Shown one piece after another: positions 15,001 to 18,000 of a DNA stretch of 64,000 bases. The stretch lies in contig CAWFGW010000028.1 in NCBI GenBank assembly GCA_963815495.1, positions 195,779 through 259,778 on the forward strand, written 5' to 3'. This DNA is from an uncultured Cytophagales bacterium. Its GTDB lineage: Bacteria; Bacteroidota; Bacteroidia; Cytophagales; JAAEPT01. Position 1 is the stretch's first letter; every line of letters starts with the position of its first letter. Made by a program: the position numbers.

Positions 15001-18000
15001 CCGCAAGCTGATTGGTGAAAGTGCTGCAACAAACAGCCATAAATTTTTAAGCGGAAGACAATAAGCCGAAAAAGCATCAAAATAGGGGAGCAGCCCCAAC
15101 CACAAAAGCCGAGCAAATAAGAACAGAAAAAGGTGGAAATGGATAAAGAGAAACTAGTACAAAACACCTTATTTTTTTGTCATTAAACAGCCCAAAATAT
15201 TGCTGCGCGGAAAAGAGGCTACAAGTGCTTAAAAAGTATAAATCTATTATGTCACAACGCCACGTACATAAATCGTAGCTTGTCTAAAAGTAAAGAAGAA
15301 TCGGTTTAAAGCAAAACCGATACTAACCACCAAGCCAATCTTGCAGATTGGCTTGCAATGTTTTCCGACCCTACGTGCCAATCTGCAAGATTACCCAAAA
15401 CACCAAACTCGCCCAAGTCCATGTTGTGCATATTTTCAATCAGAGCATCTGATTTACCAGCAGAAACAATGCGACCAAACAGCCAACAAAAAGCGAGGTG
15501 TGCGAAAACCACAGCAACCAATAAACTAACCACTGAACCTGTTTCTACTTATATGCGAGTAAAGGCAAAAAACTCAACAGTATTAAACAGCCAACCATGA
15601 AAACAGAAGTCAATTTGGCTGCGCTTTAAAACTTAGTTGAAGTAAACAGCCTGAAAAAGAGAAAAGCTTAAAAATCAGATGGAGCAGACCCCACAGAAAC
15701 AAACAAGTAGCGCCTGATACCACGCAAAGAACAGCAAAGGCGAAATTCCACCACGGGCAAAGGAGCCGCCACGAGAAACTGCCGCCACAAATAACCAAAC
15801 AGCAAAAAACACCGAAGAACTCCTCAAAAGCTTCCTTCAAAGTGACGGAAAGAAAGTAAGTACCCAAAGCAAACGGCTCAATTCCGTTCCGGCACAATGC
15901 AAATAAATAACGACAAGCTTTTGAGGATTAAACAGCCACAACCGCAAGCTGATTGGTGAAAGTGCTGCAACAAACAGCCATAAATTTTTAAGCGGAAGAC
16001 AATAAGCCGAAAAAGCATCAAAATAGGGGAGCAGCCCCAACCACAAAAGCCGAGCAAATAAGAACAGAAAAAGGTGGAAATGGATAAAGAGAAACTAGTA
16101 CAAAACACCTTATTTTTTTGTCATTAAACAGCCCAAAATATTGCTGCGCGGAAAAGAGGCTACAAGTGCTTAAAAAGTATAAATCTATTATGTCACAACG
16201 CCACGTACATAAATCGTAGCTTGTCTAAAAGTAAAGAAGAATCGGTTTACCACCAAGCCAATCTTGCAGATTGGCTCGTAAATTTTTCCGACCCTACGTG
16301 CCAATCTGCAAGATTGGCGCACTGACCATGAAACACCAAACTCGCCCAACCCACAGAACCAAGCTATGATTTTATGTACCATGTTGTGCATATTTTTTCA
16401 ATCAGAGCATCTGATTTACCAGCAGAAACAATGCGACCAAACAGCCAACAAAAAGCGAGGTGTGCGAAAACCACAGCAACCAATAAACTAACCACTGAAC
16501 CTGTTTCTGATCTTATATGCGAGTAAAGGCAAAAAACTCAACAGTATTAAACAGCCAACCATGAAAACAGAAGTCAATTTGGCTGCGCTTTAAAACTTAG
16601 TTGAAGTAAACAGCCTGAAAAAGAGAAAAGCTTAAAAATCAGATGGAGCAGACCCCACAGAAACAAACAAGTAGCGCCTGATACCACGCAAAGAACAGCA
16701 AAGGCGAAATTCCACCACGGGCAAAGGAGCCGCCACGAGAAACTGCCGCCACAAATAACCAAACAGCAAAAAACACCGAAGAACTCCTCAAAAGCTTCCT
16801 TCAAAGTGACGGAAAGAAAGTAAGTACCCAAAGCAAACGGCTCAATTCCGTTCCGGCACAATGCAAATAAATAACGACAAGCTTTTGAGGATTAAACAGC
16901 CACAACCGCAAGCTGATTGGTGAAAGTGCTGCAACAAACAGCCATAAATTTTTAAGCGGAAGACAATAAGCCGAAAAAGCATCAAAATAGGGGAGCAGCC
17001 CCAACCACAAAAGCCGAGCAAATAAGAACAGAAAAAGGTGGAAATGGATAAAGAGAAACTAGTACAAAACACCTTATTTTTTTGTCATTAAACAGCCCAA
17101 AATATTGCTGCGCGGAAAAGAGGCTACAAGTGCTTAAAAAGTATAAATCTATTATGTCACAACAGTTGTATATGAACATTGTTCATATTCCTTTTATATA
17201 ATTACTTTCTCTAAAGTAACACAAAATCTTAATTTAAAACCTAATAACCCACTTTATTATAATGCAGTAGAAAAAGTATCCGATGATTATGCGTATAGTA
17301 TGCGTATAATATACGTATAATCATCGGATAGGAGTTGAGTAGACAATACAAGTTTAATTCTTAATCAGCTTTCCATAATAGACATTACCTAGTCGGTCTT
17401 TTACCTGAATCAAATACATACCCACTGCCAACTGGCTGATGTTAATCTGGTGGCTTAAGGTGGTTCTTATCTCGTGGTTGCTGGCTATTTTTCCATCAAC
17501 TGTAAGAACACTAATCTCGGAGAAGTAGACCTGCTGATCAAATTGGCTTTCACTTGTTTGTGTCGTGTTCCATAAGGTAATGGTGGTGTTTCCGGTAGCG
17601 GGGTTGGGGCTAAGGTGCACTTTGCCTTGGGGTGCCGAGCTGCGTGGGTGTGCACTCAACACTTCTTTGCTGACTTCATTGGTAGCAATGTAAGCTTCAA
17701 AGTCAAATTGAATGTTTGCCGTGTTGCTTATCACCGAATTGATAGCTGCATCGCTTACACTTTTAATTTGAAAACTTACAAATCCGTGACTGCCTTCTTC
17801 GTTATCTTGCGCAGCAGGTAAGTTGATGTTATCAAATACCCAGGTAACCACACGGCCTTCAACAGTGACCTTGTATGTATGGCTGCTTATTATTTTATCT
17901 ATTGCAGAAATATCTAACTGATGGTCAAGTGTATCTTTAATAATTACCCGTGTCGCATAATAGGTTCCGATGTTTTGAAAACGAATTTTATAGGTGAACA

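Follow-up and report, generated by a model that had tools for sequence, protein, structure and literature searches.

An attI-type end without an adjoining integrase heads a cassette array in an uncultured Cytophagales bacterium

Sedentary chromosomal integrons, such as the Vibrio superintegron, hold unidirectional cassettes, including toxin-antitoxin cassettes, bounded by attC sites that fold as imperfect palindromes with R boxes, an unpaired spacer, and L boxes. Their crossover lies at G|TT, hybrid R' boxes match the R'' box of the next cassette, and only one side of the insertion site, at the array head, is conserved. Here we describe the head of a cassette array that shares these properties and lies in a 64,000-nucleotide stretch of contig CAWFGW010000028.1 from an uncultured Cytophagales bacterium (assembly GCA_963815495.1). 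We call this whole stretch the window and number positions from its first letter. The region of interest, 17157-17353, joins the end of a minus-strand array to the 3' end of a giant gene for a protein secreted by the type IX secretion system (T9SS). Unlike sedentary integrons, the locus itself has no recombinase, and the tyrosine recombinase of its family, seen in related genomes, lacks the IntI domain, has an extra N-terminus of ~110 aa, and is co-oriented with the cassettes. The attC-like sites also differ, being ~195 nt long with a one-sided loop that contains ACCCAC, as does the attI, which has a perfect palindrome 5-7 nt from the crossover.

[quoted passage not shown] The window fits the definition of a CALIN (at least two clustered attC sites and no integron-integrase nearby), as it has 12 attC-like sites in 3840-16389 and one more at ~586-727, and the origins proposed for CALINs are the alternatives that we weigh below. 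Unlike CALINs, however, this cluster keeps a conserved attI-type module with a leader and a hairpin, and duplication of the module at a second array in the window, together with its recurrence in relatives, argues for a maintained unit rather than a random remnant. In integrons of the Treponema/Spirochaetota type, intI is co-oriented with the cassettes and the IntIs carry the additional domain. This co-orientation is touched on in PMC9668308. Similarly, in five loci from relatives (L013 and L020-L023) the recombinase reads with the cassettes and attI lies just past its stop codon, but these Bacteroidota proteins lack the additional domain, have NF040815 (XerA-type) as their best-scoring model, and do not reach the TIGR02249 cut-off. 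Resemblance to Xer proteins over the full core and a palindromic site beside the gene recall XerS/difSL, XerH/difH, and archaeal XerA. Unlike Xer/dif, the palindrome is present in multiple copies at array heads, the exchange with folded attC-like partners takes place at G|TT, 5-7 nt outside the palindrome, and the role is not chromosome dimer resolution. In RefSeq surveys by IntI signature, integrons are almost absent from Bacteroidetes (PMC9024848). A literature search found no paper on a Bacteroidota cassette system with a Xer-type recombinase or on integrase-less attI modules, which does not prove that none exists.

With a probability of roughly 60%, we read 17157-17353 as the head (attI end) of a sedentary integron-like array on an integrase-less platform, served by a recombinase that would act from elsewhere in the genome. 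The junction itself carries much of the argument. Direct reading placed the crossover between 17162 and 17163 (AA|C on the plus strand, G|TT on the array strand). The R box at this position recurs at 10470, 11434, 12398, 15258, and 16199, where an attC body follows it, but at 17163 it is followed by an attI-type module. The cassette end ..TATTATGTCACAAC| therefore has three partners in the window: an s4-type attC (10470, 11434, 15258, and 16199), an s7-type attC (12398), and the flank AGTTGTATATGAAC.. (17163). Because the break lies at the canonical crossover, a point rarely reached by random deletion, 17163 is a recombination junction. No attC body was found beyond 17163, in agreement with the preliminary description, which had noted that no palindrome body follows the last AAC box. 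A degenerate attC was rejected as the identity of the terminal region, as the flank neither aligned to the attC family nor contained an R'' partner. All of the literal features listed in that description were recovered by direct reading: GTCACAAC ending at 17163, AGTTGT, ATATGAACAtTGTTCATAT at 17170-17188, TAACCCAC at 17245-17252, the hairpin, and the stop codon of a 2175-aa open reading frame (ORF) at 17354. Its central proposal, an attI-type end without an adjoining integrase, is supported by the three partners of the cassette end, by the conserved module, and by junctions linked to recombinases in L013 and L020-L023 but to none in the window.

Table 1. Coordinates of the array heads, cassettes, attC-like sites, and neighbouring or related genes. 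Positions refer to the window unless a locus is named.
Feature	Position	Strand	Basis or remark
Array 1, 12 cassettes bounded by attC-like sites	3840..17163	(-)	R-box match, fold, covariation
Type B attC-like sites, ~195 nt, n=11	5' AAC ends at 5706, 6722, 8382, 9506, 10470, 11434, 12398, 13495, 14294, 15258, 16199		
GC-rich attC-like site, 125 nt, different family	3840-3964		one in array 1
964-bp unit	9690-10470, and copies ending at 11434, 12398, 15258, 16199, 17163		
attI-proximal 964-bp unit, body	16383..17162	(-)	own attC-like site at about 16199-16389
First-cassette R box	17157..17163	(-)	GTCACAAC on plus strand, GTTGTGAC on array strand
Spacer AGTTGT, 6 nt, crossover to palindrome	17164..17169	(-)	direct read
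19-bp palindrome ATATGAACA-T-TGTTCATAT (= ATATGAACAtTGTTCATAT)	17170..17188	(.)	candidate recombinase-binding part of attI
AT-rich leader of module, ~90 nt	17189..17278	(-)	possible cassette promoter (candidate)
Long hairpin of TATTATACG-type repeats	17279..17330	(-)	fold and tandem repeat
Giant T9SS-secreted protein gene, 2175 aa	17354..23881	(-)	upstream neighbour, reads toward module
Array 2, one three-gene cassette and attC-like site (about 586-727)	586..2395	(-)	genes 2295-1552, 1571-1101, 1101-736
Second, paralogous attI-type module	2396..2545	(-)	AATTGG, palindrome 2402-2423, AT-rich leader, hairpin 2515-2540
Divergent gene, ~122-135 aa	L020 9551-9919, L021 9534-9917, L022 9493-9870, L023 9509-9916, L013 6892-7260		

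The sites that bound the cassettes have the structure of attC. Folded as single-stranded DNA, the plus strand of 9495-9705 formed an R box (CACAAC/GTTGTG), a 3x3 unpaired spacer, a long L stem with one extra, extrahelical T on its 3' side, and a large terminal hairpin; at ~195 nt, these sites are unusually long. We aligned 22 sites from five genomes, five of them from the window and the others from related metagenome-assembled genomes (MAGs). The consensus structure retained the same helices and the extra T of the L stem, it showed compensatory double changes in 22 of 46 pairs, and an unpaired ACCCAC was conserved on the 3' side within the large one-sided loop; within the attC sites, the conservation of ACCCAC is genuine. 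For all six distinct cassettes, the bases that follow GTT at one end and those that precede AAC at the other were exact reverse complements over six positions (6/6 in every case), which puts the crossover of the array (minus) strand at G|TT. The same cassette occurs with different upstream partners, and the breaks fall exactly at G|TT. Toxin-antitoxin cassettes are present, and a Gp49/HTH cassette occurs at 99.8% identity in a JGI metagenome contig, where homology begins exactly at G|TTAGCC behind a different upstream sequence. By these comparisons, the cassettes are mobile.

Copies of a 964-bp unit fill the four attI-proximal positions of array 1, one of them (15258-16199) with a shortened attC. 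The six copies in the window are 100% identical over the stretches compared and contain no convincing ORF. The unit looks non-coding; its plus strand is A/C-rich, its only ORFs are short and overlapping, and each copy contains six AAACAGCC motifs (38 of the 40 occurrences in the window lie in the array). A multi-copy non-coding cassette of ~495 bp, in tandem at attI, is likewise present in a related genome (bin.2.9, locus L011).

The sequence past the crossover, 17164-17330, is a conserved module of ~170 bp made of a 6-nt spacer, a 19-bp palindrome, an AT-rich leader of ~90 nt, and a hairpin. A paralogous module heads array 2; blastn aligned 17194-17297 with 2429-2532 at 79% identity (E = 5e-19). 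Both modules read AAC, 6 nt, a perfect palindrome, TTATATAATT, ~90 AT-rich nt, and a hairpin, CCGAWGATTATRCGTATA.., and they differ at ~25-35% of positions, yet palindromes and hairpin stems stay perfect through paired changes. The loose pattern ATATG..CATAT is by itself expected about once per window, but both of its window matches are perfect palindromes that start exactly 6 nt past a cassette AAC box within homologous modules of ~150 bp.

Relatives extend this family of junctions. A scan of a genome collection with an attC pattern returned 16 loci, none from the window genome, whose sources were Cytophagales MAGs MFD03250.bin.1.168 and bin.2.9, a Flavobacteriales MAG, a Cyclobacteriaceae MAG, and a Balneola MAG. 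When the window and the retrieved loci were searched with a regular expression, six junctions emerged (window 2393 and 17161, L011, L013, L014, and L015). On the non-cassette side, all six conformed to A[AGT][AT]T[GT][GT]-palindrome-N5-TTATA[CT]; on the cassette side, all six were different, a combination that amounts to attI-like behaviour. The junction at 17163 thus joins a first cassette, at G|TT, to a conserved platform side. Locus L014, which shares 2.1 kb with the window at 98.3% identity, makes the same point at close range, as window 2384-2687 and L014 2246-2543 are 93-95% identical, yet their first cassettes differ (GTTGTGTGCAATTG.. versus GTTGTATGCCATGAG..). In every junction of the family the palindrome lies at equal distance from the crossover, and its sequence varies while palindromy is kept; the others read ATATGTGGACA/TGTCCACATAT, ATATGTGCCAC-N-GTGGCACATAT, TAAACCACAT/ATGTGGTTTA, and TATAACAGC..GCTGTTATA.

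Two elements singled out in the preliminary description do not belong to this conserved core. It had pointed to ACAAC-A-GTTGT at the terminus; a role for it as a defining feature is not supported, as this sequence is specific to the 17163 copy, and the five other junctions have AATTGG (window 2396, L014, and L015), ATTTGG (L013), or AAATGT (L011) at the spacer. It had also proposed TAACCCAC (17245-17252, with AACCCAC at 17246) as a protein-binding site shared with the attC-like loops. Its aligned counterpart in the paralogous module is TAGCACTC, so that a significance of this segment finds no support, and AACCCAC is expected 7.5 times per window, or ~0.02 times per 190 nt. Neither element is conserved, and both are probably chance occurrences.

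The hairpin region 17279-17330 folds at about -30 kcal/mol (z = -6.9) and contains an 11-nt tandem repeat at 17288-17321. Its strong stem is followed by ATACTTTTTCT. A terminator scan did not flag 17279-17330, but it did flag the paralogous hairpin (CCGAAGATTATACGTATAATCTTCGG at 2515-2540, flagged as 2540-2515) as terminator-like on the minus strand. The preliminary description had assigned 17271-17330 to the giant gene as its terminator. The idea that the hairpin is simply the gene's own is not supported, as it belongs to the module; lying 23 nt past the stop codon, it probably also acts as the terminator of that gene. Sigma-70-type promoter matches occurred on the plus strand only and at chance level, and the AT-rich leader is conserved between the two window modules.

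No recombinase was detected in the window. Tblastn of the whole window with IntI1 and six family recombinases at E <= 50 found none, and the same threshold revealed no recombinase remnant in 17164-17353 or 2396-2700. Pfam scans of 20 larger window ORFs, which did not include all ORFs between 27 and 61 kb, detected no recombinase. Only 166 nt separate the palindrome from the stop codon of the giant gene, and no IntI gene adjoins either array.

In relatives, by contrast with the modules at 17164 and 2396, an integrase gene does adjoin attI (L013, L020, L021, L022, and L023). Locus L013 encodes a 379-aa tyrosine recombinase that runs in the same direction as the cassettes and whose stop codon lies 15 nt from the palindrome and 39 nt from the crossover. 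Its homologues are ~376 aa long, are 54-64% identical to it, and fall into more than 3000 database clusters at E <= 1e-40; members named by NCBI come from Bacteroidota genera, for example Aquimarina, Maribacter, and Imperialibacter. Four further contexts, L020 (the close relative bin.1.168), L021, L022 (Aquimarina sp. CP170199), and L023 (Imperialibacter CP180355), have one order: a divergent gene of ~125 aa, the recombinase, a palindrome with CAATTG|TT or a variant, and unidirectional small genes. These junctions directly follow the recombinase stop codon, with no T9SS gene nearby. The attC-like sites of L022 obey the R-box rule, and type-B sites were confirmed in L020. In the Balneola locus L004, a shorter relative of the recombinase is divergent from the array, which is the classical layout. 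The divergent gene of ~122-135 aa (Table 1) has a Zn-ribbon-like N-terminus and no Pfam match, and it is always divergent from the recombinase. The intergenic region between these two genes holds inverted repeats of the TATTATACG or TTAACCGTTTAA type, and the divergent gene is a candidate platform regulator.

The family recombinase would not be an IntI under the definition used in the field (PMC9668308), even though the system appears to work like an integron. An IntI-specific additional domain around patch III serves as the criterion (Messier & Roy 2001, as cited in PMC9668308). In the L013 recombinase, 19 residues (286-305) replace residues 182-244 of VchIntIA (PDB 2A3V), so this domain is missing. 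The best NCBIfam model was NF040815 (XerA-type), with 228-237 bits against a cut-off of 220, whereas TIGR02249 (integron integrase) gave 202 bits against a cut-off of 265 and matched in two stretches. Archaeal XerA aligned over the whole core. The product name of NF040815, 'site-specific tyrosine recombinase/integron integrase', shows that the family has at least been noticed already. For the preliminary description, which had offered a non-canonical arrangement as one of three explanations for the missing integrase, this gives some support: the recombinase of the family is Xer-like, co-oriented with the cassettes, and without the IntI domain.

Absence of the recombinase ORF from the modules at 17164 and 2396-2545 makes them integrase-less (delta-int) platforms, and several comparisons bear on how they came to be so. 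Both modules align colinearly to the flanks of the L020 recombinase joined without the ORF, with scores of 54 and 58; shuffled controls scored 16-20 +/- 6 with a maximum of 40, and none of 300 reached the observed score. The TATTATACG/CGTATAATA repeat of the window-module hairpin also occupies, in L020, L021, and L023, the stretch that separates the small gene from the recombinase, and TTATATAAAAGGAATA, just before the 17170-17188 palindrome, matches the L020 segment between the recombinase stop codon and the palindrome. These similarities favour a delta-int origin of the window module. The deletion suggested in the preliminary description therefore has some support in the colinear flanks. About 100 nt past the integrase-less attI of L015, at 7200-7340, lies a near-palindromic element (GTTGATTAACCG..CGTTTATTAAACGGTTAA) that is inverted relative to L013 6836-6895, its counterpart upstream of the recombinase start. 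This element suggests that L015 may be another platform from which the recombinase was lost.

Service in trans, the remaining proposal of that description, gains some support from bin.2.9. In this MAG an integrase adjoins one attI (L013, contig_1018), and two further attI sites (L011 and L015, contig_15485), with nearly the same palindrome, are integrase-less. A cassette of ~495 bp (96-99% identical) stands in tandem at the L011 attI and is present in two copies in the array of L013; the copies stay alike precisely up to ..ATATCAAC|, beyond which comes attI, an s2-type attC, or an s7-type attC. This sharing indicates that a relative has undergone cassette insertion at an attI that lacks an integrase, and it supports the idea that such sites could be served in trans.

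Taken together with these comparisons, the integrase-less platform would operate as follows. The first cassette is joined at the canonical crossover to the ~170-bp module, in which the 6-nt spacer and 19-bp palindrome would bind the recombinase, the ~90-nt leader is a possible cassette promoter, and the hairpin of TATTATACG-type repeats may also terminate transcription of the upstream giant T9SS gene. The platform of this family normally carries, co-oriented with the cassettes, a Xer-like tyrosine recombinase of ~376 aa that lies after the repeat region and before the palindrome. At the window arrays, cassettes would be inserted and excised by a recombinase encoded elsewhere in the genome, whose substrates would be the attI at 17163 and the attC-like sites in the form of their folded plus strand, which is the bottom strand for the array.

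The principal competing account is that 17164-17330 is a fossil: a decayed platform whose recombinase was deleted, with nothing in the genome that acts on the module, so that the array is an inert CALIN. The lack of a recombinase in 64 kb, the resemblance of the module to a delta-int derivative, the decayed appearance of the L015 platform, and internal damage to one attC (15258-15429) would all be expected on this account. Decay is harder to reconcile with two modules that are ~25-35% apart and yet keep perfect palindromes and hairpin stems by paired changes, with near-identical modules in the window and L014 that head different first cassettes, or with the relative in which the same cassette stands at an integrase-less attI and in an integrase-linked array. 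Moreover, the attI-proximal cassettes are 100% identical copies, which indicates recent events. We regard a fossil head as unlikely, although it deserves to be taken seriously.

Less credible still is the idea that no attI is present, with the palindrome and hairpin being ordinary elements, operator or terminator, of the 3' region of the giant gene and the array having been inserted at a secondary GTT site. Integron integrases do use secondary G|TT sites. The hairpin lies 23 nt past the giant-gene stop codon, the paralogous palindrome and hairpin were both flagged as terminator-like, and the loose ATATG..CATAT pattern is not rare. However, the palindrome with its spacer adjoins the first cassette at 2396, L011, L013, L014, and L015, and a variant form does so in L020-L023, where it is directly 3' of the recombinase stop codon and no T9SS gene is nearby. 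Conservation of the module thus appears largely to refute this idea, and we consider it quite improbable. A deletion scar or an assembly artefact, with an attC body removed by a deletion or dropped when the identical 964-bp repeats were mis-assembled, is the explanation we find hardest to credit. Assembly is difficult for six copies with 100% identity over the compared stretches, and the short-read contig L019 does break at repeats. Against such an accident, the break falls exactly at AA|C, no attC remnant aligns past 17163, and the conserved module that follows is found also at 2396 and in independent assemblies of other MAGs.

Several observations weigh against an integrase-less platform served from elsewhere. 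The window genome's own recombinase was not found within the 64 kb, and the integrase-linked palindrome of the closest relative (L020, bin.1.168), TAAACCACATATGTGGTTTA, differs from the window palindromes. A scan of metagenomes with the junction palindrome GTATATGAACATTGTTCATAT gave a sole match, by chance, upstream of a gene for a short-chain dehydrogenase/reductase (SDR) in an unrelated high-GC contig. The alignment that favours a delta-int origin is built on short AT-rich segments, and hairpin repeats of the TATTATACG type also occur in terminator-like hairpins away from any attI (L016 and L002). The Bacteroidota -7 consensus TAnnTTTG is absent from the leader at 17189-17278. Homologous recombination, instead of integrase action, is a possible origin of the six identical 964-bp copies. 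Finally, the best match to the giant gene was only 41% identical, too distant to serve as an orthologue for an empty-site or synteny comparison.

On a broader and more tentative level, to which we give somewhat less than even odds, the Bacteroidota (and Balneola) may have their own integron-like system, with a Xer-like, co-oriented recombinase lacking the IntI domain and with portable integrase-less modules of attI, leader, and hairpin; the window would then hold two tandem satellite platforms. If the insertion site travels as a portable module, one recombinase would serve several arrays scattered around the chromosome. The arrays described here have the structure of attC cassettes and are linked in relatives to a very widespread recombinase family that would fail the test for IntI. 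If this system is real, structure-specific cassette recombination would be possible without the additional domain of IntI, many of the arrays at present classed as CALINs may be active satellites that possess an attI of their own, and surveys would be counting too few integrons in a major phylum. The locus provides a defined, testable substrate pair, consisting of the attI at 17150-17200 and a type-B attC.

Neighbouring and minor features of the window and related loci are as follows. Pfam domains of the giant 2175-aa protein are FG-GAP_3, DUF11, DUF7619, UnbV_ASPIC, and Por_Secre_tail, and an exact database look-up of an 825-aa neighbour protein gave no record. Array 2 is headed by the paralogous module at 2396-2545, and L019, a Logan short-read contig, equals window 2420-696 at 100% and ends in the palindrome and in attC; the window organism is represented in read set ERR12040027. 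In array 1, the GC-rich attC-like site at 3840-3964 has a branched fold and A rather than G at the first R' position (ATTGTGCCC), and it is 100% identical to L014 5011-5156. The damaged attC copy at 15258-15429 contains an additional insert (AAAGCAAAACCGATACTA) and is missing the ACCCAC loop and a portion of the second arm, with the adjoining cassette otherwise identical. An extra 15-nt mini-hairpin insert (CCCGATAGCTATCGGG) is present in the 5' loop of some type-B sites in L002, L006, and L008.

A second apparently non-coding cassette, 13677-14294 (618 bp), has no convincing minus-strand ORF and contains five copies of a motif like CGACAAACAGTTGGTCAAT. The cassette gene at 4154-5614 (-) encodes a 486-aa protein with a cytidine/deoxycytidylate deaminase domain and HATPase_c_4 ('RecG C-terminal') and is possibly of a defence type. 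Rfam searches returned only tRNA-Cys and hairpin noise. A 'type A' element of ~100 nt (..TAGCGCAAGGTTAAGCGTAGCGGTCCTTGTGCTTACTNATTATTTGCAGTTACTCCTTTGT..) occurs in the window at 497-600, 2590-2690, and 3715-3800 and in six copies in L014. These elements stand at cassette starts on the array strand, have no Rfam match, and are followed in some copies by a terminator-like hairpin. They were rejected as attC sites, having no attC fold and a position at the start rather than the end of cassettes; a type A element could be a small RNA, a leader, or an internal promoter element. In the Balneola array of L004, a 36-nt perfect-ended palindrome, GTTGAAGATGAAGAGCGGAGCGAATTCATCTTCAAC, follows each attC (2640-2690, 3900-3940, and 4925-4975) and is bounded by GTT and AAC. 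It resembles an empty mini-cassette, and its last copy adjoins attI.

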